A DNA stretch of 46,710 bases, from the IMG/VR virus record IMGVR_UViG_3300047277_000078, positions 1-46,710 of that record; one strand, 5' to 3'. The position numbers and the translations under genes were made by a program. Below are positions 128-24,942 of the stretch, in pieces. The notes below the pieces were generated by a model that made no database searches, was not told the origin of the DNA, and saw only the letters and a program-made list of their open reading frames with translations. Position 1 is the first letter of the stretch; every line of letters starts with the position of its first letter. Origin of the DNA: a virus (Duplodnaviria; Caudoviricetes).

Positions 128-141
128 TTCGTGGGATAGCA

Positions 142-215
142 AGGTACTACGAGAGGTCCCTATTGAATGCGTATAAGTACCACGTACACATCGTAAAAAT
201 ATAAAATTTTTTTCA
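142..215 (+). other. Candidate lambda-type cos site (cosQ-like AGGTACT, 18 nt, cosN-like dyad, then A/T tract)
   Basis: AGGTACT-(18 nt)-ATGCG|TATAAGTACCA|CGTA...AAAATTTT parallels lambda GGGTCCT-(18 nt)-TTACG|GGGCGGCGACCT|CGCG...AAAATTTT. The phage encodes a GpA-type terminase. Inference only. Confidence 0.3.
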
Positions 216-792: not shown

Positions 793-1317
793 TTATAAAT
801 CAGTAATTTGTGTTATATATTTATACCCTCTGACGGTTCGCTTTAATATAGTATCTAGTTTACTTAATTCATATATAGTAAATATATGGTAATTTAATTG
901 CTTTCCTAAGGTATTTATATCTTTTAAAGTATGGTAAGTATCGTTAGAAGTATCGTTAGAAGTATCGTTAGAAGTATCGTTAGAAGTAAGTTTTTCTATT
1001 ATTGTAATTAATTCTAGTTTTCTACTTGTAGGTATAGAATCTTCCTGACTGGGTTTAATTACTATATTAACTTGTTTATCATACCAACCTATTGTATTAA
1101 ATTCCTCTGGATAGCGTTCTCTTACTAAATTAATTACAGTATTTATATTATTTTGTGCTGTTATTAAGGGTATATAGCCATTTTTAAACTGGTTTTTAAT
1201 TAAAGTTAGTTCTGGTCTTACATGGTTATATGCTTTCTTAGTACCATGTTTAGATTGAAGTATCTTAGCTATAGGTAATTTATTTAATAAATCTTCTCTA
1301 GTTACTTTATATGTCAT
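793..1317 (-). CDS. Hypothetical protein coupled to rep, containing a (TSND)4 repeat
   Basis: Start overlaps the rep stop by 11 nt; basic 174-aa protein. Confidence 0.75.
   Translation of the reverse strand: MTYKVTREDLLNKLPIAKILQSKHGTKKAYNHVRPELTLIKNQFKNGYIPLITAQNNINTVINLVRERYPEEFNTIGWYDKQVNIVIKPSQEDSIPTSRKLELITIIEKLTSNDTSNDTSNDTSNDTYHTLKDINTLGKQLNYHIFTIYELSKLDTILKRTVRGYKYITQITDL
936..988. repeat. 12-bp tandem repeat (AAGTATCGTTAG) x4.4, in frame
   Basis: Seen directly; encodes TSND repeats. Confidence 0.95.
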
Positions 1318-1972
1318 GACGAAACTCCACCCTGTCGCCTACTACTTTTGTTTTTAAATGTATTCCTAGTTTATTTCCTATATCTTTTAAGGTAGGTTGT
1401 AGTAGAGTTCTATTTAATTCTTTATATTCTTTATATTCTCCTTCTTGTACGTTAGCTTGTAGGCGTATATCGGCTTTAGTTATATAAAATACATCATTTT
1501 GGCCTAATTTCCATAAACTTTTATGTATTAGTAGGTATAGACTGTATCTTTTCTGACTTTTTATTGTACTTGTTATGGGATCTATAGTTATGAAAGTACC
1601 GCTACGCATATTTCCGCTTATATAAGGTATGAATTTTCTATTCCAGTTTATTTTTACTATATAGGGGTCATCGGTGTAGATAACTTCATAGACTAGGCTT
1701 GTATTTATTTTATAGCCATTAGATAGGTCTAGGGTAAAACTTGTATCTCTAAGTTTATTCGCTATTGATAATACTTGGTTATAGGATTTTTTTAAAGTGA
1801 TTCCGCAAAGTGAGGCGTAAAGATGTAAATCTACGGGTATATATTGCTCGTCAGTGAATTTTTCTCGTTGGTCGATCCGTAGCAAGCTGCTATTTATGAA
1901 TCGGCTGTCACATAAGTCTAAATCTTTGAATAATGGTATGGTGTCATGATGTAATTTTACGGTGTTACTCAT
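1307..1972 (-). CDS. rep: Plasmid-type replication initiator, Rep_3 (winged-helix) family
   Basis: The C-terminal IKSQKRYSLYLLI...ITKADIR...YKEYKELNRTLLQPTLKDI resembles Rep_3 WH2. Start reassigned from 2044 to ATG 1972 (MSNTVKL), preceded by RBS TAGGAG. Confidence 0.8.
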   Translation of the reverse strand: MSNTVKLHHDTIPLFKDLDLCDSRFINSSLLRIDQREKFTDEQYIPVDLHLYASLCGITLKKSYNQVLSIANKLRDTSFTLDLSNGYKINTSLVYEVIYTDDPYIVKINWNRKFIPYISGNMRSGTFITIDPITSTIKSQKRYSLYLLIHKSLWKLGQNDVFYITKADIRLQANVQEGEYKEYKELNRTLLQPTLKDIGNKLGIHLKTKVVGDRVEFRHDI

Positions 1973-2021
1973 TTTATCTCCTATTGGTGGAGGGGGTATT
2001 ATAGCAAAAAAGGTGTATGGA

Positions 2022-2051
2022 ATTCTAGCTGTTTTTATGCCCATTTTTCAA
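2022..2051 (-). promoter_or_regulatory. Putative sigma70 promoter of rep (TTGAAA-18-TAGAAT)
   Basis: Consensus-like boxes lying between the iterons and an inverted half-iteron. Confidence 0.45.
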
Positions 2052-2056
2052 TATCT

Positions 2057-2097
2057 GGAAAAAACCTACACCTTTATGGGAAAAAACCTACACCTTT
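2057..2097 (+). repeat. Iteron-like direct repeats GGAAAAAACCTACACCTTT x2, 22-bp period
   Basis: Copies at 2057-2075 and 2079-2097; inverted half-site AAAGGTGTA at about 2009-2017; adjacent to rep. Confidence 0.75.
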
Positions 2098-2261
2098 TTC
2101 GACTTAAGTTATTGAAATGTATTGGGAATTTCGTGTACTACTGTAGAGATAGAATCAAGAGCATAAGATCAAAAGCATATAAGTGAATAGGTGTGATAAG
2201 TGGCTGCGCCTGATAATATATATATATATATAAAGTAGATAATTAATTAATTTATATATCA

Positions 2262-2303
2262 GCACGGCGTATACTAAGCGTAGCGTGTAAAGCAGCCGTG
2301 CGG
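2262..2303 (+). other. Conserved hairpin element C1 (candidate ssi/sso)
   Basis: GCACGGC-GTATACTAAG-C GTA G-CGTGTAAAGCA-GCCGTGC-GG; inverted homologue at 3658-3710. Confidence 0.6.
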
Positions 2304-2498
2304 CATCACTTATTTATATACTCTACTATAATTAATAGATATATAAATAAAGTATATAAATAGATATATATATATATATAAATAGATATATAAAGCCTCT
2401 ACCGCTCTACGATATAAGTATAATTAATATAGATATATATATAATATATAATATAAGTAAGTAAGTAGTTAAATTAATATAGATAGATAGATAGATAG

Positions 2499-3130
2499 TA
2501 CCTCTCCCTGCTGTCGTTAATATAAATAGATATAATTAAGTAAGTAGATATAATTAAGTAAGTAAATAGATAGCTACTTTAATAAATAGATAATTGACGC
2601 TAAATTAGCTCTAAATAGGATAACTATAGCGATAAATAGGTAAATTTGACGAAAATTGTCATAAATTGACTTTAAATTTAAATTAATAGGACATTAGAAT
2701 GGAATTTTAGCTAGATTTAATGAGTAAATTTATAACTTATAGCTTACTTTAAATAGATAAATAAGTAAGTAGATAGATAAATAAGTAGAGCTGGCTTAGT
2801 ATAAGCGGATTGGGTTATATATAAATATAAATAAATAGATAATATAACTTAGAATAAATATAGATATAAATATATTAGTTATTAAATATATAATACCTCT
2901 CGCTACTCTCGTTAAATATATAGATGAAGTAATATATATATAGATGAATTAATAAATAATATATATAAATAGATGAATAATATATAAATAGATGAATATA
3001 TAGATTAAATATATATATTGCTTGGTACAAGCGGATTGGGCTATACTTTATAATATATAATACTGTACCGATAAATATAGATAAATTAAGTTAAATTATA
3101 GATAAATCTACCTCTCGCTACCCTCGATAA
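2499..3130 (-). repeat. Dispersed repeat A (TTAWCGA-S-R-GNA-G-S-GAGAGGTA), 3 good copies
   Basis: Copies at 2499-2520, 2894-2915 and 3109-3130; degenerate copies at 2395-2413 and 3309-3324. Confidence 0.8.
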
Positions 3131-3416
3131 TCAATTAAATATATAATTTAAGTATAAATTAAGTTAATATATATATATTAAGTATAAATTAAGTTAATAT
3201 ATATATATTAAGTATAAATTAAGTTTAAATATAGTTTATTTAATTATTGCTCAGAATGAGCGGATTGGGATATATTTATATTTAATAAACTTATAAATAT
3301 AAATTAAGTATCTCTGCGCTAGCTAATTTATGTAAGCAATTAATTACATTAAGTATAAATTAATTAATTAGATATAAGTTTATTATTTAATTATTGCCTA
3401 GAATAGGCGGATTGGC
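2794..3416 (+). repeat. Dispersed repeat B: 5-bp stem, GNA loop, then GGATTGG, 4 copies
   Basis: 2794 GCTTA-GTA-TAAGC, 3020 GCTTG-GTA-CAAGC, 3249 GCTCA-GAA-TGAGC, 3396 GCCTA-GAA-TAGGC; each followed by GGATTGG. Confidence 0.9.
3148..3225. repeat. 30-bp AT-rich tandem repeat x2.6
   Basis: TTAAGTATAAATTAAGTTAATATATATATA repeated. Confidence 0.85.
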
Positions 3417-3657
3417 CTGAATTAGCTTGAATATTATTTAAATTAAGTTATTTAATTATATATATAAATGATAATCGCCAATGCCTGAGATACTTCGTAT
3501 CACGCCATAATGCCGATTATCTAAGTAAATAAGTGAATATATATATTTATAATTTATACTCTAGTTATATATCTATTTATATTAAGTAATTACCGAGTGT
3601 AACGAGTATAATTACCAAAGAATTTAATTTATAATTATAATTTATATATATATAAGT

Positions 3658-3710
3658 CCGCTCATGAGCTGCTTTACACGTCACTACGTTCCTTAGTATA
3701 CGCTCATGGC
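3658..3710 (-). other. Conserved hairpin element C2 (inverted homologue of C1)
   Basis: Minus strand: GC-CATGAGC-GTATACTAAG-GAAC GTA GTGA-CGTGTAAAGCA-GCTCATG-AGCGG. Confidence 0.6.
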
Positions 3711-3903
3711 TAAATAAGTAAGTAGATAAATTAGAAGGAGGGGTTAGAGCCAAAGGCTCATAAATCATTGATTAATAAAGGTTAAAAAGTCGGCTATAAA
3801 AACTCTAAAGATACTTTACTCTTTCTACTTTTAAGACTAAAGAATTATTGACAGAACCAGTTAAAGGTAGATTGGTTATAGAAAGTTTAGATGGAGAAAT
3901 TGG

Positions 3904-3959
3904 TGAGTTTAGAGAGTAGATGTTGAATGAGTTTAGAGAGTAGATGTTGAATGAGTTTA
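3904..3959. repeat. 24-bp tandem repeat TGAGTTTAGAGAGTAGATGTTGAA x2.3
   Basis: Seen directly. Confidence 0.85.
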
Positions 3960-4146
3960 AGAGGCTAGGCTGGTTAGTAGGTGGATGGCGTAGTGAAGTT
4001 AAGGAAGCTTGGGAAATAAATAAAGTATTATAAAGAATATAAATATCTAAATAAATATATATATATAGTATAAAAGAACTAGCCGAACTAGAAATAGTAT
4101 CTATACGACTAGAAGTTTTTAAGGTTAATGGGGTAAGGTAGAGGTT

Positions 4147-14292: not shown

Positions 14293-17200
14293 TTATACCC
14301 TATGAACTGTAAGTGAAAACCAAGGAAACTCTATCATAGCATTGGAAGTAACACCAACATTGTTGGTACTAACTAAAGTAAAGGTCAATGTAAAATTTGT
14401 AGTTCCTGCTATAGTTGGGGTAACTGTGGCTTTTGTTATAAATCCCCCTTTAGTTCCCGTAGGTATTACAGGGAAATTTGCCATAGTGTAAGTTGCTATT
14501 AGAGTAGTTGGTGTTGCAGTAGTAGCATTAGAAGTTATACCTACATCTACAGAAGTAGTACCACCAGTACCACTGGCCCCTACTAGAGTAAACCCTGCTT
14601 CTACAATTATATCTTGTTTATTACCATCTATGCTTAATACTAAACTTATATTAGTAGACGTATTAACGCCTTTTACAAATGTTTGCTGTCCCATTGTCCC
14701 TGGTGCAAAATAGGTAGATAGAACAGTAGTCGTAGTTAATTGTCCAGCAGTAGCAAAAGCACCTAACCCTGCTACATTTGCATTAGGTAATGCTGTTATT
14801 GCGTGAGTTACTGCGCTGCCGCCAGATAATACACCAGCAGCACTCAACGATATTAAATTATTTAATATAGAGACAGTAGGGTTATTCGCAGCAGCAGCTA
14901 TATTAGTCTTAGAAGCTAAAGTAGTACCAGAAGCCGCGCCAGAAACTACTGTACTAATAGCAGTACCACTCATAGTAGCAGTAACTGCGGCTTTACTCCA
15001 AGTAGGCCCACGCTGTATTCCAGCAATATAGTCACCATTAGATGATGATTTACATGCAGCAACACCAATACAATAACTTTTATCTACCGCTACACCTATA
15101 AATTGATAGTATGTACTAAAAGTTGCTGTACCCTTATATAATATTGGTACTGATACAGTCGAAGACCCGGCCATACCTGGGTAATTATATGGAATAGCTG
15201 CTACATAATAAGCACCATCTTTTATATACAGTATAAAAGAGTCAGCTTCTATAGTTCCTTGTGTGTATGTCCAAGCTATAGTTATATCTACTAAACCTAA
15301 AGCGGATACTGGACTAATAGTCATAGAACCTAATATAGGCAAAGCCCCATTAGGGGCAGCCTCAGTTGTAAAAGACGCTATAGTTGCCGCTACGTCAAGG
15401 GCAGCACTAGCGTTAGAAACCACTGTAGCTGCTGCAATACCAGCGATAGTTGCAGTAATATTTGGTACACCTGCGGCTTTAGTCCATCCAGTAACAATAG
15501 CTGTACTTTTAATACCACTTCCAGATAAACGAGAAGCTGTAATACCTACTTGATATGCTTTATCTATAGGAACACCTAATACTTTATAAGTATAGGCTTT
15601 ATTTAACTTTGTTGGATCAGCAGCTATCCCAGCAACTAATACTGTACTAGCTATAGTAGGTACAACTAAACCCTCTACAGCATATAAGGTAAAAGTTTCA
15701 GCCGATACTCCTGTAGCAGGTTGTTGGTATGTCCAAGTAAGTGTTACATCTACAGTCCCTGTAGAAGAGGCAGAACTTTGGGATACAGAAGATAACACTG
15801 GTAGTACACTAGGTATAGCTACAGAAGTATAGCTATCAACAGAGGTAACAAAAGTAGAAGAAATGCCTGCCCTAATCCAAGGGCCATACAGTAAACCATA
15901 TATAATCCCAGAAGATGTTTGTCTACTTGGGCAGATACTTACACTATAATTACCTTCAATAGGTATTCCTGTAACAGTGTAACTTCTAGTATTACCGTCT
16001 ACTACTGCTAAAACAGGGGAACTAGCGGTAGGCACTGAAGTAGGTATAGCTGTAGCATTAACTATACAATACAATGTAAAACTATCTGCTTTGTATGTTC
16101 CTTGTGTATATGTCCAAGATAGTGTTACATTTACATTACCAGTTCCTGTTTGTGACGCATTGATTGTAGTGTTATTTAATAATGTTATAGAAATACCACT
16201 AGAAGGGGCAGCATTAACAGTAAAATTAGGTTCATTACCATAAATATAATCATTAACTATTTTACCTAAGGCTTCTTTCTGTATATAATAGTTTTGGGCA
16301 TAAGTTCTAAAATCTATACCAGATTGTGCTGTTATAGCTGTTTCTACATTTATATTAGTATTATTTATATAAATAGGGACTGTAGTATTAGTTAATGGAT
16401 TAAGCCAACTACCTGCAACACCCGTATTTAAGAAAGAACCTAAATTACCTAATGCAGTAGCATATGTACTAGGAATCGCAATAGAATAAGATAAACAAAG
16501 ACTTGTTAAATTTCCGCGCTCTAATATTATATTATCCCATTCTTTACGTATAATAGCTTTTTCAAGTGTACTAATTACATTATCATTTACCATAGCATCA
16601 ATACTAACACCAATAGCAGCAACATTATCTGTAAGCGTTTTTGCTGGTACCCCATTAACTTGCGCAGTATCTTTAGATATATTTAATGACGTTTTATCTG
16701 AAGTAGCTACCCAAACATTATCATTAGGCGCAACACCAGCTTTACCGTTATGTATAAATGTTACGCCAGAGGTACTTTGAAAATATATATCACCTTTAGT
16801 TCCTGTTGTAGTTACAAGAGGGTCAGATGTACCAGAAGAGTAAATTGTATATGAGGCACCTGCTTTCCAAACATTAGCTATCTTAGTATATAAAATACCA
16901 GTATCAGTGCTATAACATAAATCACCATCTACACCAAGACTAACTAAAGGGGTACCTAAGCAAGTATAAGAATTATTATTAGACGCTTGTATTATCCAAT
17001 CAACAGCACGCCTAGCGTAAGTTCTTCCTAAAGATGTTGCATAACAAATATCTCCGACAGAACTATTAGCCGGTACAGATAATGTATTATCAGTAACATC
17101 TATAGTTGGTGCATTTAGTTGAACTGTAATAATGTTTTTAGTAGCATTATCTACAGGTTTCTTTCCGGTAGTGGTGGTTATACTTTCCCAAATAGCTTTC

Positions 17201-20200
17201 TTAGCTGCTTCGTCCGCAATACCTTGGGTTATTGCAGCTCTAGCCACTGTTTGATTTTTAGTAGCTATACGAAAATCTATTCCTATATCCTGGGAATTTA
17301 CTATAGTAGGAATACCAGTATTAGTTACTGTTCTTATATATGTAGGAGAAATAAAATATGGTATTACTGGTGGAACAGCTAAAGTAGCGTCTAATACCCA
17401 AGTAGTTGCTGTTAGTGATCCTGATTGTAAAAAGTTACCTAAAACAGTTAGTGTGGCTATATATGTTGTATATAAAGAAGATATATTATATGCAGTAGTT
17501 TTTGTTTTTAAGACCGTTAATTCAGCTAGGGAGGCATCCCAATAACCTCTAATTGTTTGTAGCTCGTCTAGCGATATAAATTTATCTGATAAAATATTAT
17601 CTAATCCTGCTACTACATTATTAGCCGTTTCTAAGGCGATAGCTGCTTCAGTGGCAGCGGTAGTTGCAGCTAATGTAAGTTCAGAAGCCGAAATACCATT
17701 AATATTAGCTGTTATATTAGCAGCACCTCCCTGCCTATTCCAGCCATTTGTACTAGAAACAGGGCCAGTACCCGTAATAATAGCAGTAGATTTAATTCCA
17801 TCATTAGATAAACGAGAGGCTATAATACCAACTTTGTAGCTCTTATCTGCCGGAACACCAATAACTTTATAAGAGTATGTTTCTTGTAAATTAATACCAG
17901 AAGAATTTACTGGTGTAACATCTAATTTTATCCCATCAATTAATATAGCTGAATCTATCGTAGGCTGACTAATATCAGTTAAAGTGACTTCGATTGCATA
18001 TAAAGTAAAAGTTTCTGCTTTAACTACCCCTTGTAGATAATTCCAAGTTATAGTTATATCAACAGTACCTATTGTACTACTATTAGCTACTATAGCATTA
18101 CTAGATGGTACAGAAGGTACATTACTTGGTATAGCAATAGATGTGTAATTTTTAGTGGATAATGCGGTAATATTAGCCCTAGCCGATAAAAAACTTGTAT
18201 TAATAGCTCTCCAACTAACGCCCACAGCAGAATTAACATCTATACCTTTATTAGTTACATTACCCAAATAAGTGTCTGTTAGAAAGTATGGTGTAGTTAT
18301 ATTAGTAATTGCTGTTATTGACGGTATTGCCCCAACTTTTGTACACCATGTAGCTATAGCAGGACTTACATTAGTTTCAGTTAGTATATTACCTGTATTT
18401 AAGAAATTACCTAATTGGTATAATGCAGTTAGATAGGTTACTTTTATTGGTGTTAGATATGTACTAGAACATTGTGCTTCTAAATTAGCCTTTTCATTTA
18501 CGTATGTTCCCCAGTTACCTTTTATAAGCTGCAATTCTAATAAAGAAATATTTCCATCAGATAACATGGTGTCTAATGAGGAAGCAGCATAAGCTATGGT
18601 TGCTACACTTACAGCATTTTTAGCAACTAAAAAATCTTTATAGGCAGCCCTATAGGTAGAACCTGTATTATCATCTATATGTAAACCAGAATTAGTTACG
18701 AGCTTTATAAAAGTATCAGATATAAAATTAGGTACTACTAATATTACAAGCGTAGTTGTAGTTACACCATTTAATGTAGTAGACGTATAAGTACACCAAG
18801 GAGTAGGTATGCCTGTATTAGAATTTGCAAGAGGATCACCCGTATTTAAAAAATTACCTAAATGGTAGAAAGCACTTAAATAGGCTAATCGTTCTGCTGG
18901 AAGTAGGTTATCAACACATTGTTTTTCAATACTAGATTTTTCTGTTGTAAATACATCCCAGGCAGATCGCATCATCTGTAGTTCAGGTAGTGAAATATTT
19001 TTATCCGATAACATATTAGTTAAAGCTAATACAGAGGTATCTGATACTGCTTTAATAACTTTAGACCTCTCAGTATAATAGTTAGTAAATACACTTCTAA
19101 AACTTTCTGGTGTATTAGGTGCTGTAAGTAAAGTATCTTTAGCTAATTCTGTAGCATCTTTTAGCCATAAAGGGGGTGTTGCTGTTACTAACCATACCCA
19201 AGCAGTACCACCATTTAAATAGGTAGCTACAGCTAATAAAGCTGTATAGTAAGCAGCAGAAGATACACTAGCATAAGATGCTTGTGCTTCAATTACTGTT
19301 TTTTCATTATATATAATATTCCATTCTTTGAGTAGCGCAGACTTTTCTATAGGACTAACATTAGCATCATCCGCCATTTTAATTATAGCTTCATTAGCTA
19401 ATTTAGCTTTTGCGTCAGCTACGCCGGACATACCTTCTAATAAAGTAATTTTAGCTTTTGTACATGTAGCTAATAAAGCTTTACATGTGGTAGCAGTAGT
19501 AGCAGATACTATTAATCCTGTATTATCTGTAACTACGGTAGCACCATTTACGATATTACTAGAGGTAGGAAATTTAATATAAGAGTCATTAAGATAATAA
19601 GGAACATTAGATATTATTTGATTAATATTGGTAATTACATTTGAGGTAATAGGCCAAACTATCCACGTATTTTCTGCCTTGCCGTTATTAAAGAAATTGC
19701 CTAAATCCCTGATGCTACTAATGTAATCTGCTGCTAAGACAGGTATATTATATATAGCTAATGCTTTAGGATATAAACTAACAATTTCTGATATTATTTG
19801 ATCCCATATAACCCTAATATCCTGTAATTCACTTCTTATAAGTATGTTATCTGCTAAATCATTAGTTAAGGTTGCCTGTGCGGCATAACCAAAAGTATAT
19901 GCGTCAGTTATTTCTGTGGCTAGTGCTGAGGTTAAATCGGTATCAGCTACTTTAGCTGTAGTACCTAAAATACCTATTGTATTACTTAAAGGATAGTAAG
20001 AAGAATAGTTTCCTGTAGTATCGACGGAGCGAATCCAGAAATAACCAGATAAGCCAGCAGCTAGTTTATGAAAACTATAAAAGTTACCACTAGATATTGC
20101 TACTTTGACTGCTCCAGGTACGGTAGGATTAGTAGTAGCAGCAAAGTTAGAAGTAAAATTAAACCATATCTCTGTTTCTTTTAAATCTACACAAACTGTG

Positions 20201-23200
20201 TTATCTGTATTAGTAGTAGGATTTTGCCAACCTAAACTGACTATACTAAAACCAGAGGTAGCAACTAACGCTGTTGGGGCATTAGGAGCAATAGAATCCC
20301 CATTAGCTATAATAGTAACTTCATTTGTATATAAACTATGTGCATCAACCAGATTAGCTCTAACTTTAACCTTATATGTCTTACCAATTAGAATATTAGA
20401 ACTTTGTATAAATAATTCACTGGTATCTAAATATGTATAAACTAATGGTAGAATATTTGCATCAGCTATACCTAAAGTATACGAAGATACTTTATCTAAG
20501 ACCGCTTCTTTAGTGCCTACGGCAGGAGTTGTACTAGGAGTCCACGTAGCACGTAAAGTCGTAAAAGTTTCACCAGATATTTGCTGTGCTTGTGTCTGTG
20601 TTACTACTAAATCTGTAGGTATATGTGGTGTTAAAAATACACCTGTAGTAGTATCTTTAGCTAGAATTAAAAGAAATTCTGATGACCAATTTAGTCCTAT
20701 ATCTGAGTAATTATCAGCTAAAGCTATTTTTACGTAGTAAGTGCCGTATGTCGGTGAAGTTATAGTAAAGCCGTCATGATATTGACTAGCTATGCCTTTA
20801 TAAAACCAAGTAGCAGGTACTGGATCAAAATCAGGGGTAACACTAGCGGCTAATATAAATTCTGATATATCGGATGGTATAGTACATGTAGCTAAATTAA
20901 CTATTATAGCTTTATCAAAACCTGTTATTAACGCTTCCGTTAAAACTATAGGAGCAGGATTAGTAAAATTAACTGCAACAGGAAGGCTAGTTGATCCTGT
21001 TATATCCCTAGAATATATTTTTAATTTAAACGCTCTAGGTGTTGTACCAAAATCAGATTTTATTTGACTTTTAGGGTATTGTGTAGTCACCCCTTTATAA
21101 TTAGGAGTTTTTAAATTATAGTTAATAATATAGTCATTATACATAGTAAGACCGTCCTCACTATATACTTCTACTACATAATCCTTTAGTTTATCTGTTT
21201 TATCATCATTTTCTATGGGATATTCCCAACTAATAGGGGCATCTTGAGAACTAAAAATAGTATCTAAGGTATCTGTTACAAAAATATTAATAGGAGGGAG
21301 TAGTGAGGAACTCATATCTAATTTATAAGTATAGGAACCTACAATACGACTAGATTTCATCTTAAACATATTTACTGCTTGTAAAGATACTTCATAAGTA
21401 CCACTAATAGCATTTTGTATGTCAAAAGTATTATCTTTTATATTTTCTACATAAGTAAAATTCTCTTTGTGTTTTCTATAACCTAAAGTATAACTATCTA
21501 TAACTGTATTAGCATCCCAGCTAACTCTTAAAACAGAGGCACCTACTACGCCATTAGTTCTATGACCTTCTACTATAGTTAATCCTGTAGGAGTAGATAC
21601 TGTAGTAGTTATTTTAGTATATATAGGGGGGTCAACAATAATGCCGTATTCAATAGCAGCATATTTAGCTGGATCATAAAATACAGCAGAAATAGTATAA
21701 ACTCCCCGGCTAGATTCTGTTATATTTCCTATTCTAAATTGTCTGGCTACTAATGTACCTACTTTATAAATATAATACTCATGGTTAGTGTAGTCACCGC
21801 TAATAGTACCCGCGACTGTAACAGAGGTATAAGTACCTGTAGATTGTAATAAAGGTATTTCTATAATATTATCATAAGTAATATTATTTACTGCTAGTAT
21901 CCAACCAGAGCCTGTTAAAGATACGGGAGTATCTAAAATAATAGTAGTACCGATAGAGCTGACTATACGCCCACCAAAAAATTCTGTATCAGAACTAATA
22001 AAGTCGTTATCCATGATTGATACGACATCACCTACGGATAGATCAACTATATTTAAACTCATACTAAATGCTACTTGATCTGCTTGGTGCATAGCAGTAT
22101 ATAAAGTCCATTTTGCTAATCTTCTTGCGGCTGTTTCAGTAACTACACCAAAAGCTACTGTATCCGACATGATAAAACCAAATTTAGCTATACCGGCATT
22201 ATCTTGCTCACTTATTGTCCTAGGTAAATAATCATTTGTTCGTTCATTAAAAGTTACATTAGCTACAGTAGGTCGGGTTGTACTAGAATCGGTAGAGTAA
22301 CTAAATGCACCTTGTATTACATTTGAATTATTAATAACTTTACTTGGTAAAGTAGGTCTATCTTGTATTAATGTTATAGTATCGCCTGTAATAGCTATAT
22401 TAGCTCTCATAGTAGAAGCTACTGCATGTAATAATTGCCAAGCGTCTTGTTGTGTTTGTATTACAGCATTAAATGTATATCTAGTTTCCATACCACCAGA
22501 AGCAGTATGACCATCTACTAAAGTAGTACCATCAGGAATTAGTTGATCGCAATAAACCGCTGCATCATAGAAAGCCCATTTATCTACTAGAAGTTCAGTG
22601 TTTAAATAACTTTTTACCCCATATCGCTCATTAACTAATAGATCATATAAACACCAAGCAGGGTTATCCGTCCAAGCGTATTTAAAAGTACCGTTCCACA
22701 AACCAGTATACGTTTTTGTTATAGGAGAATAGTTACTAGGAATCCGTATAATTAAGCCTTTTACATCATAACCTCTTGCAGGTATAGAATTACCTACTGA
22801 TTCTGCTGATACTGTTACACCAACAATAGCAGTATCTGGATAAGTTTCTATTTGATCTACAATTTGTGTCTGACGAATAACTTTAAAGGCACCTTTATCT
22901 TTTACAGTATCCATAGGATCATTAGAAGTACGCCTAACTCTATATGCCCAGCCACCTAATTTATTTACATCTGGATTAAGTAGTTTAAAGTCCATTTCAA
23001 AAGAACTTACTGCCTTACCTTCAATAACTTGTACCAATACCTCTTTAAATGTGCCGTTAGGAAGTGACCGCGTATCCATAGCTATACTAACAGTAGAACC
23101 ATGTAAATCACCTGGGGGTATAACTAATTTAGTTAGCCCTTCAAAGAAATTTAAAGTTACAATAACAGCGTCTACATTTGTTTCTGCTATAGTACCTGTA

Positions 23201-24942
23201 TAAGGTACAGCAGTACCTGGATTAGCTGCCATATATAAAGATAAATATTGGTCAGATAAGTTCTTATATGTCGCTTGCGCATCAGCATCGGCCGTCCAGG
23301 GCCTATTCATAGGAATACCATATCGAGCTATATGTGCTACATTAAATATACCTAATACTTTTTCCCATATATCATCGTCACTTTGCCCACTTATGTAGGT
23401 AGTAGGTATAGCTCCTATATTACTAGAGCCATTTTTTACAGTAGAAGCATCTATAGCAGTTATAGATTCTATATCAGTAAAGCCTGGAATAGCTGTTTGA
23501 TCTGGTAAACCTAGTCTAATATCTAAAAATACATTAAAGAAATTATCTGTCCCATCTACATTTTGTACTCTAGTATTATTAAAATATACTCCTTGTAGTG
23601 TAGAAGATAATGCTTCAATCGTATTTTGTCCAATTTCTATGTTTTTAATTCCTGCACTTCTACTAGCCTGAGATGCTATAAAATATAGACCTCTACCTGC
23701 TGTAGTTAACTTAGTACGTATAGTTGCGCCATTTCTTTTGTAGATTACAGAGGTAGCACTATATTCTATAGAAAATACAGTTTCTAATGTAGTAGATGCT
23801 TGACTTGTTCCTTTATGTACACCAGATTCATATATACTATAAGTAGAATCATCATTACAACGTATGCCAAAATCAACTGAATTAAAGGCAGCCAAAGAGG
23901 CGGCAGCAAGAGCAGCTTCACTTACTTGTCCTGTAATAGTATTAAAATTAGAAATATTAGAGGTAAGCCCAACTATTTGTACTTTATCTACTGTACTAAA
24001 CTGCCAACGAATTACTAAACTTCCTATAACGGTAGTAGGGCTATAACAACCTGCATCATAAGTTTCATAGACTGACTGAGGACTTTTAATACAACCAGAT
24101 AATGTAGTTAAACCAGTATCTGAGAAGGACATTAAGCCAGGTTCTTCCGTAGTAGCTGACGTAGGTAAAATTGTCATTACTGTAGGTGAAGAACTAATAG
24201 GAACTAATGTATAAGTAGTAGGGTGAAAAACTTTACCGATAGTTCCCCCACTCAATCCGACTAAACCTTCAATAGGACCTTCAGAAAGTATTTCTAATGT
24301 TCTAGCTACAGCACTAGATTGTATTGTATTAGGGTCTTCTACTGGGGCGCGATTAGAGGCTGTTTTCCCCCCACCACCATTATGAACTCTAGTCCAATTA
24401 GTACCATCACCAACAAAGTAAGTATGTTGTGGAATAACTTCAAAGTTATATACTTTATAACTATCTATTAAGCTATCAAAAGGTGTTATAGCTATAGAAG
24501 TAATAGTTACAGTATCTCCGTCTAAATTTACTAAAGTATCTCCTACTTTAAATACTTTAGCTTCTGTATGCTCATTAGTTTCTTTATTATAAAGTGCATG
24601 ATTACCTGTACAATCAGGTAGAGTATAAGTGAGTCCTTTAGTATCTAATAAAGTAAAGGTATAAATATCTTCACCATTTACCTCAGCTTTATCATGTATA
24701 TATGTTTGTGTAACTAAACCATGTTCTAAATTACCATACCTATCATAAGATATAACTAAATCACCTGAACGAACTTCTTGTATTGGTGTATAACCTTTAG
24801 CAGTACGTACTAAAGTATTATAAGCAAAACAACTACCACCACCACCACCACTACCAGAAATAACATCAGCACCTTGTAATGAAATTAAAGTATTTAATTC
24901 TGCTTCTGTTTCTAAATAGTTTAAACCATAATACTTTATCAT
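14293..24942 (-). CDS. J: Giant tip attachment / central fibre protein J (3549 aa) with an N-terminal Hint domain
   Basis: LSEGPIEGL, YPDTAIVG, W.GTFK.AWTDNPAWCLYDLL..ERYG, DKWAFY.AA.YCDQL and ARRLAKW.LYT are lambda gpJ motifs. Confidence 0.95.
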   Translation of the reverse strand: MIKYYGLNYLETEAELNTLISLQGADVISGSGGGGGSCFAYNTLVRTAKGYTPIQEVRSGDLVISYDRYGNLEHGLVTQTYIHDKAEVNGEDIYTFTLLDTKGLTYTLPDCTGNHALYNKETNEHTEAKVFKVGDTLVNLDGDTVTITSIAITPFDSLIDSYKVYNFEVIPQHTYFVGDGTNWTRVHNGGGGKTASNRAPVEDPNTIQSSAVARTLEILSEGPIEGLVGLSGGTIGKVFHPTTYTLVPISSSPTVMTILPTSATTEEPGLMSFSDTGLTTLSGCIKSPQSVYETYDAGCYSPTTVIGSLVIRWQFSTVDKVQIVGLTSNISNFNTITGQVSEAALAAASLAAFNSVDFGIRCNDDSTYSIYESGVHKGTSQASTTLETVFSIEYSATSVIYKRNGATIRTKLTTAGRGLYFIASQASRSAGIKNIEIGQNTIEALSSTLQGVYFNNTRVQNVDGTDNFFNVFLDIRLGLPDQTAIPGFTDIESITAIDASTVKNGSSNIGAIPTTYISGQSDDDIWEKVLGIFNVAHIARYGIPMNRPWTADADAQATYKNLSDQYLSLYMAANPGTAVPYTGTIAETNVDAVIVTLNFFEGLTKLVIPPGDLHGSTVSIAMDTRSLPNGTFKEVLVQVIEGKAVSSFEMDFKLLNPDVNKLGGWAYRVRRTSNDPMDTVKDKGAFKVIRQTQIVDQIETYPDTAIVGVTVSAESVGNSIPARGYDVKGLIIRIPSNYSPITKTYTGLWNGTFKYAWTDNPAWCLYDLLVNERYGVKSYLNTELLVDKWAFYDAAVYCDQLIPDGTTLVDGHTASGGMETRYTFNAVIQTQQDAWQLLHAVASTMRANIAITGDTITLIQDRPTLPSKVINNSNVIQGAFSYSTDSSTTRPTVANVTFNERTNDYLPRTISEQDNAGIAKFGFIMSDTVAFGVVTETAARRLAKWTLYTAMHQADQVAFSMSLNIVDLSVGDVVSIMDNDFISSDTEFFGGRIVSSIGTTIILDTPVSLTGSGWILAVNNITYDNIIEIPLLQSTGTYTSVTVAGTISGDYTNHEYYIYKVGTLVARQFRIGNITESSRGVYTISAVFYDPAKYAAIEYGIIVDPPIYTKITTTVSTPTGLTIVEGHRTNGVVGASVLRVSWDANTVIDSYTLGYRKHKENFTYVENIKDNTFDIQNAISGTYEVSLQAVNMFKMKSSRIVGSYTYKLDMSSSLLPPINIFVTDTLDTIFSSQDAPISWEYPIENDDKTDKLKDYVVEVYSEDGLTMYNDYIINYNLKTPNYKGVTTQYPKSQIKSDFGTTPRAFKLKIYSRDITGSTSLPVAVNFTNPAPIVLTEALITGFDKAIIVNLATCTIPSDISEFILAASVTPDFDPVPATWFYKGIASQYHDGFTITSPTYGTYYVKIALADNYSDIGLNWSSEFLLILAKDTTTGVFLTPHIPTDLVVTQTQAQQISGETFTTLRATWTPSTTPAVGTKEAVLDKVSSYTLGIADANILPLVYTYLDTSELFIQSSNILIGKTYKVKVRANLVDAHSLYTNEVTIIANGDSIAPNAPTALVATSGFSIVSLGWQNPTTNTDNTVCVDLKETEIWFNFTSNFAATTNPTVPGAVKVAISSGNFYSFHKLAAGLSGYFWIRSVDTTGNYSSYYPLSNTIGILGTTAKVADTDLTSALATEITDAYTFGYAAQATLTNDLADNILIRSELQDIRVIWDQIISEIVSLYPKALAIYNIPVLAADYISSIRDLGNFFNNGKAENTWIVWPITSNVITNINQIISNVPYYLNDSYIKFPTSSNIVNGATVVTDNTGLIVSATTATTCKALLATCTKAKITLLEGMSGVADAKAKLANEAIIKMADDANVSPIEKSALLKEWNIIYNEKTVIEAQASYASVSSAAYYTALLAVATYLNGGTAWVWLVTATPPLWLKDATELAKDTLLTAPNTPESFRSVFTNYYTERSKVIKAVSDTSVLALTNMLSDKNISLPELQMMRSAWDVFTTEKSSIEKQCVDNLLPAERLAYLSAFYHLGNFLNTGDPLANSNTGIPTPWCTYTSTTLNGVTTTTLVILVVPNFISDTFIKLVTNSGLHIDDNTGSTYRAAYKDFLVAKNAVSVATIAYAASSLDTMLSDGNISLLELQLIKGNWGTYVNEKANLEAQCSSTYLTPIKVTYLTALYQLGNFLNTGNILTETNVSPAIATWCTKVGAIPSITAITNITTPYFLTDTYLGNVTNKGIDVNSAVGVSWRAINTSFLSARANITALSTKNYTSIAIPSNVPSVPSSNAIVANSSTIGTVDITITWNYLQGVVKAETFTLYAIEVTLTDISQPTIDSAILIDGIKLDVTPVNSSGINLQETYSYKVIGVPADKSYKVGIIASRLSNDGIKSTAIITGTGPVSSTNGWNRQGGAANITANINGISASELTLAATTAATEAAIALETANNVVAGLDNILSDKFISLDELQTIRGYWDASLAELTVLKTKTTAYNISSLYTTYIATLTVLGNFLQSGSLTATTWVLDATLAVPPVIPYFISPTYIRTVTNTGIPTIVNSQDIGIDFRIATKNQTVARAAITQGIADEAAKKAIWESITTTTGKKPVDNATKNIITVQLNAPTIDVTDNTLSVPANSSVGDICYATSLGRTYARRAVDWIIQASNNNSYTCLGTPLVSLGVDGDLCYSTDTGILYTKIANVWKAGASYTIYSSGTSDPLVTTTGTKGDIYFQSTSGVTFIHNGKAGVAPNDNVWVATSDKTSLNISKDTAQVNGVPAKTLTDNVAAIGVSIDAMVNDNVISTLEKAIIRKEWDNIILERGNLTSLCLSYSIAIPSTYATALGNLGSFLNTGVAGSWLNPLTNTTVPIYINNTNINVETAITAQSGIDFRTYAQNYYIQKEALGKIVNDYIYGNEPNFTVNAAPSSGISITLLNNTTINASQTGTGNVNVTLSWTYTQGTYKADSFTLYCIVNATAIPTSVPTASSPVLAVVDGNTRSYTVTGIPIEGNYSVSICPSRQTSSGIIYGLLYGPWIRAGISSTFVTSVDSYTSVAIPSVLPVLSSVSQSSASSTGTVDVTLTWTYQQPATGVSAETFTLYAVEGLVVPTIASTVLVAGIAADPTKLNKAYTYKVLGVPIDKAYQVGITASRLSGSGIKSTAIVTGWTKAAGVPNITATIAGIAAATVVSNASAALDVAATIASFTTEAAPNGALPILGSMTISPVSALGLVDITIAWTYTQGTIEADSFILYIKDGAYYVAAIPYNYPGMAGSSTVSVPILYKGTATFSTYYQFIGVAVDKSYCIGVAACKSSSNGDYIAGIQRGPTWSKAAVTATMSGTAISTVVSGAASGTTLASKTNIAAAANNPTVSILNNLISLSAAGVLSGGSAVTHAITALPNANVAGLGAFATAGQLTTTTVLSTYFAPGTMGQQTFVKGVNTSTNISLVLSIDGNKQDIIVEAGFTLVGASGTGGTTSVDVGITSNATTATPTTLIATYTMANFPVIPTGTKGGFITKATVTPTIAGTTNFTLTFTLVSTNNVGVTSNAMIEFPWFSLTVHRV
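24379..24831 (-). other. Hint (intein-like) domain, 151 aa, C38 to N188 of gpJ, no homing endonuclease
   Basis: Block A CFAYNTLV, block B TGNHALY, blocks F/G VYNFEV..QHTYFV...VHN; the +1 residue is Gly. Confidence 0.92.

Follow-up and report, generated by a model that had tools for sequence, protein, structure and literature searches.

What do two inverted copies of a conserved hairpin do on either side of a long A+T-rich array in a tailed phage? We addressed this question in IMGVR_UViG_3300047277_000078 (Duplodnaviria; Caudoviricetes), a stretch of 46,710 nucleotides (nt) that was analysed at its full length and is hereafter called the window; it is a single contig in a virus record, with a completeness estimate of 48%. 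The two hairpins, C1 and C2, lie on opposite strands in a non-coding region (about 1975-4145) that separates the last tail genes from rep, a Rep3-family initiator gene located beside C1. We consider it quite probable that C1 and C2 are single-strand initiation (ssi) signals of some kind, and we assign a probability of roughly 0.5 to the more specific reading that they are signals of the primosome assembly site (pas) kind, one per strand, which load host DnaB and DnaG. The simplest reading of the array region is a replication origin with single-strand-active signals on each strand; because C elements occur on both strands, both strands must become single-stranded.

Structure of C1, C2 and the array

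A preliminary description of the window, made from its letters alone, had reported two inverted copies of a conserved hairpin bracketing the array. A search of the window for the two internal boxes separated by a gap of 3-15 nt returned exactly two sites, one on each strand (2269-2294, + and 3670-3701, -), and none of 100 dinucleotide shuffles of the window contained the pattern twice, which bears the report out. C1 (2262-2301, +) and C2 (3708-3663, -) each have a perfect 7-base-pair (bp) outer stem, and 5 of the 7 pairs are changed on both sides between the two copies with pairing kept, as read from the sequence; the statement that the outer stems differ yet pair fully thus stands, as does the statement that both apical loops are C-GTA-G. 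The preliminary description had treated the elements as simple hairpins, and its stems do pair; however, the conserved boxes also pair with each other via a 3-bp TAC/GTA helix, giving a three-tier hairpin in place of a plain stem-loop. The order of parts is an outer stem, a GTA / AAGCA internal loop, the 3-bp helix, TAA / GT bulges and a GTA-loop apical hairpin, and the apical hairpin of C2 is longer than that of C1 and includes tandem G-A mismatches. Both elements are followed by GCGG, as had been noted, but the register differs: the GCGG overlaps the stem in C1 and begins one base past the stem in C2.

The DNA energy model probably undervalues triloops of the form GNA and tandem G-A pairs, and folding energy alone is weak evidence for C1 and C2 (z = -2.39 for C2 folded as DNA; the value for C1 is given below). 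In contigs of a second strain from lake sequencing runs, C1 (2 runs) and C2 (3 runs) were unchanged and collinear, and their flanks carried substitutions and indels; over about 50 bp, this invariance is not significant alone.

The interval between C1 and C2 contains five further hairpins with GNA loops (B1 to B4 and D; Table 1), context that the preliminary description had missed. B1-B4 all share the strand of C1, and D, which shares the strand of C2, folds as DNA with z = -6.53 on that strand versus -2.81 on the plus strand. Based on a scan of 2200-3770, GNA loops occur in 5 of 6 perfect triloop hairpins (shuffle mean 0.056; none of 500 shuffles reached 5), and the other 42 kb of the window contain 7 perfect GNA triloop hairpins. 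Mini-hairpins of the GCGNAGC type, which have high stability as DNA and are known from the priming origins of phages, are bound poorly by single-strand binding protein (PMC13037366). The A repeats of the array have degenerate copies at about 2395, 2499 and 3309 and an inverted copy at about 3594-3606; they are likely to be protein-binding sites in duplex DNA. Promoters for a virion RNA polymerase of the N4 type were considered for the array hairpins and ruled out: the 3549-amino-acid (aa) protein of the window is a tail tip protein, and the B loops lack C-G closure.

The initiator locus beside C1

The rep product matched PF01051 (E 7e-9, over the cut-off) and, below the cut-off, PF21205; neither this gene nor the repeat pair upstream of it was named in the preliminary description. 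The locus has several traits of a Rep3 iteron replicon, namely a Rep3 initiator, direct repeats at a spacing of about 22 bp and an A+T tract, although the repeats number only two and could also serve as an operator; a partial inverted copy of the repeat lies at about 2006-2020. The locus thereby resembles Rep3 iteron replicons of the F RepE type and phage-plasmids, with Rep3 WH1 and WH2 domains, 21-22 bp repeats and an A+T tract. It differs from them in having only two direct repeats and no exact DnaA box near the origin. An exact-match search with the consensus found no DnaA box in 1900-3800 and five in the window, all elsewhere and at chance level. Also in contrast to Rep3 iteron replicons, a scan of proteins revealed no partition genes, and the relatives have a family A polymerase (Pol A), a ligase and helicases of their own.

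Comparison with known initiation sites

We scanned ColE1, phiX174 and F with the 16-nt core of C1. ColE1 yielded a single best site at 1329 that matches 13 of 16 bases (next best, 11; 5 of 200 shuffles), and the likeness extends to a 3-bp helix in the same register, a GC-GTA-GC tip and a 7-bp outer stem. With a relaxed structure descriptor, ColE1 likewise gave one match, at 1310-1352 (shuffle mean 0.05), and there was no match in phiX174 or in a 12-kb stretch of F. The ColE1 match follows the origin region on its downstream side, immediately after a 9-mer that resembles a DnaA box, and it points away from the origin, as C1 does. A pattern consisting of a B-like hairpin and then GCGGAT has a single match in ColE1, at 1584 of the opposite strand; this pattern was modelled on a pBR322 site, so it is not independent. 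The literature places the ColE1 pas near a DnaA box (PMC3640518) and describes two PriA sites (n'-pas) in ColE1, ssiA and ssiB, one per strand and downstream of the origin (PMC3167613). ColE1 and the phage are thus alike in having two origin-side sites, one per strand, and the placement of C1 is pas-like in that it lies next to the putative origin on the outward-pointing strand and is partnered by an element on the opposite strand. The two systems differ in that the phage carries the same element on both strands, the copies being separated by 1.36 kb of A+T-rich array. The phage origin would be opened by Rep3, whereas the ColE1 origin is opened by an RNA primer, and the phage element is found in a tailed phage with a genome of about 90-100 kb, whereas ColE1 is a plasmid.

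In phiX174, the single best site is at 2353 on the viral strand, in the F-G intergenic region, where the pas is presumably located; it matches 12 of 16 core bases (next best, 10; 53 of 200 shuffles) and has a GC-GAA-GC tip. Unlike C1 and C2, it is a single site in a single-stranded genome, without a matching outer stem or inner helix. As described in PMC5778457, the phiX174 pas is a hairpin at which PriA, PriB, PriC and DnaT load DnaB. The best core matches in F were at chance level and away from the origin, and F does carry a homologue of the ColE1 site, a hairpin close to ori2. The core thus matches ColE1 and phiX174, instead of the IncQ model that had been proposed, which points to loading of a host primosome.

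Conservation in relatives

A Rep profile search identified 62 subfamily representatives at E<=1e-10, and locus searches with Rep alignments returned 5 viral and 19 metagenome loci, duplicates included; a terminase search returned 31 loci, and Rep was present in 8 of the 23 records searched. Two loci that were retrieved via the Rep protein and not via the motif, L067 and L075, contain the 16-nt core of C1 unchanged, 699 and 382 bp upstream of rep and in the orientation of C1. Their Reps are 42% identical to that of the window and 74% identical to each other, so we counted them as one lineage. The element in these loci has a different outer stem and a paired change in the inner helix (T-A to G-C), and L067 contains a further copy in which the AACA / GGCA loop is retained but the paired stems are new. 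Across the five copies, paired changes therefore occur in both the outer stem and the inner helix, consistent with the predicted hairpin. A strict structure descriptor was written by hand from the five copies (MAFFT misaligned the outer stems); in 971 kb of DNA (94 sequences) it matched only these five source copies, which indicates specificity and is not independent support. Of 9 relatives scanned, 6 have a repeat pair with a spacing of 21-22 bp that lies 126-170 bp upstream of rep, and L004 carries a repeat near-identical to that of the window.

Searches by sequence alone returned little. Among 2.9 million viral contigs, the core with a free loop base matched 8 stretches, of which one contained the exact 16-mer and none was close to a Rep; among the matches listed, five were inspected and none had matching architecture. 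A relaxed two-box pattern matched 54 stretches in viral contigs, none with a flanking stem >4 bp; only the G001 contig (2 stretches) also carried a Rep, and we took the other stretches as chance occurrences. One candidate in G001/L004, at 6915, keeps the boxes loosely and keeps the inner helix; it was not counted, as its outer stem is 3 bp, it scores 18/24 like chance sites, and it fails the descriptor. In blastn, C1 had no match in plasmids and C2 nothing meaningful in phages. Rep had no match in plasmids, single- and two-sequence Rep searches of viral contigs returned none, and no Rep relatives were found in genome contigs.

Several relatives have other features at the same locus. L071 (400-447) and L072 (92-142), on the strand opposite rep, contain different GAA-loop hairpins with shared stems at the place and in the orientation of C1, and the tip of the L072 hairpin has tandem G-A mismatches, as in C2. 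G025 bears a low-complexity array of its own. G009, G014 and G025 encode distant, more typical Rep3 proteins at a similar locus (G025 with two Rep matches), and the comparison suggests that the initiator module has been exchanged among terminase relatives. A separate motif of about 75 bp with fixed spacing (AAGGTACT, 21 nt, GCGT and later TTTTCC) occurs in non-coding DNA at 138-210 (+) of the window. It is common to 9 distinct family records, including L004 (9581), L067 (442), L075 (1654), G003, G009, G014, G019 and G025, and is thus more widespread than C1/C2; it is not a conserved hairpin, and a role in packaging or as a promoter specific to the phage is possible.

Replication genes in relatives

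The preliminary description had stated that no primase is encoded in the window, and we found none. All related records are fragments (41-90% complete according to CheckV), and the search for a primase in them, which had been suggested as a check, detected no family: Toprim and DnaB_C were detected in 0 of 10 records and Prim-Pol, AEP and the DnaG zinc ribbon in 0 of 5, with controls detected in each case. RepB_primase (RepB') was likewise detected in 0 of 5 incomplete records, a search in which the positive control was also undetected. A 662-aa protein of G003 has no Pfam or Protein Data Bank (PDB) match and no primase motif by eye. By comparison, a family A polymerase is encoded by G001, G003, G019 and G020, and the first three of these carry a Dda-like helicase, a ligase and exonucleases in continuous clusters; Dda- and UvrD-like helicases occur among the relatives. 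This gene content supports host priming without proving it. The Pol A gene is split into two open frames in G001 and G019, with the Pfam domain interrupted in G019, and the split is possibly an intron, an intein or a natural split.

Proposed mechanism

Under the pas reading, Rep would bind the repeat pair and open the A+T tract beside C1, perhaps with help from the partner protein or from transcription. The exposed strands would fold C1 (+) and C2 (-), whose GNA tips would resist single-strand binding protein, and host PriA-type proteins would recognise the folded elements and load DnaB with DnaG. DnaB travels 5' to 3' on its loading strand, so a helicase loaded at C1 would run right and one loaded at C2 would run left; the two would cross in the 1.36-kb interval, yielding two forks and no unreplicated gap. 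Extension would be by the phage family A polymerase or by host Pol III, and B1-B4 and D may be accessory single-strand signals. We infer these steps from what can be observed at the locus, namely the sequences, their covarying pairing, the Rep3 gene, the repeat pair, the occurrence of the element in a distant Rep lineage and the likeness to ColE1. The preliminary description had proposed one priming site per strand at an origin; the sites are indeed one per strand, with Rep3 and the repeat pair adjoining C1, but priming in place is less favoured than helicase loading.

Considerations against the pas reading

A number of results weigh against this reading. On structure, C1 folded as DNA has z = -1.06, and 27 of 200 shuffles fold equally well. 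On the comparison with known sites, the ColE1 and phiX174 matches are presumed to be the mapped pas sites; the loop ranges of the relaxed descriptor were set only once the ColE1 site had been seen; the phiX174 match carries little weight by itself and does not satisfy the structure descriptor; and the origin-side hairpin of F was picked by neither the core nor the descriptor. The internal loops of the phage elements differ from those of ColE1, where the conserved loop ending in GCA has no counterpart, and a protein of the phage may act at this loop.

On conservation, the strict element is carried by two Rep relatives of one lineage and is absent from 12 of the 14 Rep relatives with >=300 bp upstream (L004, L069, L071-L074, L076, L077, G019, G009, G014 and G025); G019, for instance, is continuous over 22 kb upstream of rep and lacks it. 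It is also found in none of the four Pol A records, and the core at 2 mismatches was found in 0 of 23 terminase relatives. The exact two-box pattern, a search for which had been suggested as a check, had 0 matches in viral and metagenome contigs, and the core plus GCA had 0 matches in 185,579 genomes. Finally, the replicons in which pas sites are known are those of E. coli, and a divergent primase may have gone undetected in view of the fragmentary records and their many unassigned genes.

Alternative explanations

The strongest competitor, which we consider unlikely but worth serious attention, is that C1 and C2 are priming or helicase-loading sites for a phage-encoded protein, with strand displacement resembling that of the IncQ ssiA/ssiB system; this widens the idea of the preliminary description. 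Candidate readers are a divergent primase encoded outside the window (which is about 48% complete), the Rep partner and a superfamily 1 (SF1) helicase, and the relatives do have their own Pol A, Dda-/UvrD-like helicases and a conserved partner gene. The internal loops of C1 and C2 are identical, which suggests sequence-specific recognition, and the opposite-strand pair at a Rep origin recalls IncQ, where two similar elements of about 40 nt occupy opposite strands close to iterons; the two systems also share a GNA mini-hairpin tip. In PMC8567376, the 40-nt ssiA is described as having a single hairpin at nt 7-27 and, on the 5' side of this hairpin, 6 unpaired bases that are bound; priming is placed at a GTG 3' of the hairpin, by the plasmid-encoded RepB'. 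A GTG does follow the tip in 4 of 5 copies (C1, C2, L067 and L075), but it lies inside the inner helix and is missing from the second L067 copy. The C elements are three-tier, with internal loops across the whole 40-46 nt, and IncQ uses a RepC initiator and a RepA helicase, whereas the initiator here is Rep3 and DnaB_C was not detected in the 10 records. On these grounds, we do not retain the IncQ/RepB' model of the preliminary description. A phage-encoded reader in general is disfavoured in that no primase family was detected in any record tested (with the RepB_primase control also undetected) and no primase was found in the replication clusters of G001, G003 and G019, which appear uninterrupted. 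In addition, primers made in place at C1 and C2 would run apart, with the 1.36 kb between them copied last, which is workable on a circle but less economical.

It is improbable, in our assessment, that C1 and C2 are genome-end, packaging or recombination signals involved in terminus formation or concatemer resolution. Many related contigs break just upstream of rep, but low-complexity DNA alone can break assemblies, and the window was assembled through the array, with contigs of two strains crossing C1 and C2 without joints. G001 is classed with inverted terminal repeats that include rep, the A repeats invert beside C2 with a rough symmetry of the array, and the corresponding non-coding regions of relatives contain the fixed-spacing AAGGTACT motif together with GGCGAC-type repeats. 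Against this, the terminase genes are 38 kb away, and the strand-specific GNA loops point to single-stranded DNA and not to duplex binding.

The inverted repeats of G001 (a 40-kb record; L004, L005, 6487-14238) are about 7.75 kb long, contain rep, the repeat pair and early genes, and begin at the 3' end of a tRNA gene; they could be real terminal repeats, the borders of an invertible middle or an assembly artefact. Clusters of the GGCGAC-type repeat occur in non-coding DNA of L004 (6625-6890), G003 (right end), G019 (about 17800-18100) and G025 (L153, 3000-4870). They may resemble the cohesive-end sequence of lambda, which would fit a gpA terminase.

Direct recognition by host DnaG, as at origins of the G4 type and without helicase loading, is an explanation to which we give little credence. 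The DnaG of E. coli uses the triplet CTG, and other hosts differ. By inspection, no CTG is present in or just after C1/C2 on the folded strand, although the triplet is host-specific, and, of ColE1, phiX174 and F, the first two gave the best core matches. Origins of the G4 type do use mini-hairpins (PMC13037366), and no phage primase was detected.

Structured non-coding RNAs or transcription signals on both strands would suit a long non-coding interval, but we regard them as very improbable: Rfam had no match in the window, the array scan found no terminator-like site and no promoter excess (14 versus 19.4 expected), the named strands folded as RNA gave z of only -0.60 (C1) and -1.09 (C2), and GNA triloops and tandem G-A pairs are motifs of DNA. 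The least probable explanation, ends of an invertible segment or of a miniature inverted-repeat transposable element (MITE), has in its favour two inverted copies around 1.36 kb and is opposed by outer stems that differ (unexpected for inverted ends), by the direct orientation of the two L067 copies and the single copy in L075, by the lack of a recombinase among the window proteins scanned, and by the finding of no inversion, the alternative role raised in the preliminary description, and no joints at C1/C2 in contigs of two strains (6 runs), although contigs drop rare variants.

The window and its features

Table 1. Coordinates of features at the C1/C2 locus of the window.
Feature	Position	Strand	Description
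rep partner gene	793..1317	-	directly after rep; conserved; helical
rep, Rep3-family initiator	1307..1972	-	open frame from 2044; likely start 1972 after GGAG site
Direct repeat pair, iteron or operator	2057..2099	-	two 21-bp copies, 22-bp spacing, 127 bp upstream of rep
Near-pure A+T tract, candidate unwinding element	2213..2260		between repeat pair and C1
C1, predicted single-strand initiation signal	2262..2303	+	three tiers, GC-GTA-GC mini-hairpin tip; points away from rep
A+T-rich low-complexity interval	2304..3657		80% A+T, 1.36 kb; contains G+C islands A, B and D
B1	2794..2813	+	perfect 5-bp hairpin, GTA loop, then GGATTGG
A repeats (CTCG-N5-CTCG type)	2894..3130	+	copies at about 2894 and 3109
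B2	3020..3039	+	5-bp hairpin, GTA loop, compensatory change relative to B1
B3	3249..3268	+	5-bp hairpin, GAA loop, compensatory changes
B4	3396..3415	+	5-bp hairpin, GAA loop, compensatory changes
D	3470..3521	-	long interrupted hairpin, C-GAA-G loop, same strand as C2
C2	3658..3708	-	C1 architecture, other outer stem

Homologues of the rep partner were aligned from 11 of the 17 relative loci inspected. The partner had no Pfam match over the cut-off and no PHROG assignment, and structure searches assigned no fold: Atlas matches were <0.8, Foldseek returned none at E <= 0.001, and the best match in the VIA search (Z 7.2) was to generic helical bundles. The partner gene contains a 12-bp tandem repeat (SNDT x4), which is shorter or absent in a 163-aa relative that is 95% identical.

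The virion genes of the window are lambda-like and encode a gpA terminase, a lambda portal, an S49 protease, a lysozyme, tail proteins M, L and K and the 3549-aa tip protein; the annotated terminases closest to that of the window are <=33% identical. The tip protein (14293-24942, -) contains a Hint (intein-like) domain at residues about 38-190 (PT-HINT, E 2e-14) that ends in VHN. The window sequence was matched in freshwater and lake sequencing runs, with no RNA dataset among them, which carries no weight as to expression, and run X1 contains a near-identical contig that may be the source of the window. The depth of this contig was 98 across rep and C1 but 56 in the tail genes and 20-30 in the array, values that we did not use, as contig depth does not equal copy number. 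The first 125 nt of the window consist of about 31 TTTA copies, which are either a real low-complexity tract or an assembly extension.

Implications

Single-strand initiation signals and Rep3 origins are already known kinds of element. In the literature searched, with older papers mostly outside it, we did not find a matched opposite-strand pair across a hairpin array in large tailed phages that encode a polymerase and have no detected primase, nor a description of this element or of the phage family. We tentatively suggest, as a possibility that we would not yet bet on, that lambda-like phages of about 90-100 kb use a hybrid machine in which Rep3 opens a hairpin array, the host restart primosome is recruited on both strands, and the phage, without primase or DnaB, supplies only a family A polymerase, SF1 helicases and a ligase. 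If true, this would explain how a large phage with its own polymerase dispenses with a primase.

Primosome assembly sites are known from few E. coli replicons. What PriA recognises in them beyond a fork-like hairpin is unclear (PMC5778457). If the pas reading is correct, the three natural variants would make it possible, for the first time, to base the structure of a primosome assembly site on covariation, and the natural variants that keep the outer stem, the 3-bp helix, the bulges and the GNA tip are a direct list for oligonucleotide tests. Should the reader instead be a phage protein, the elements would lead to a new initiation factor. If C1 and C2 act as proposed, the origin of an uncultured freshwater phage family would be identified.

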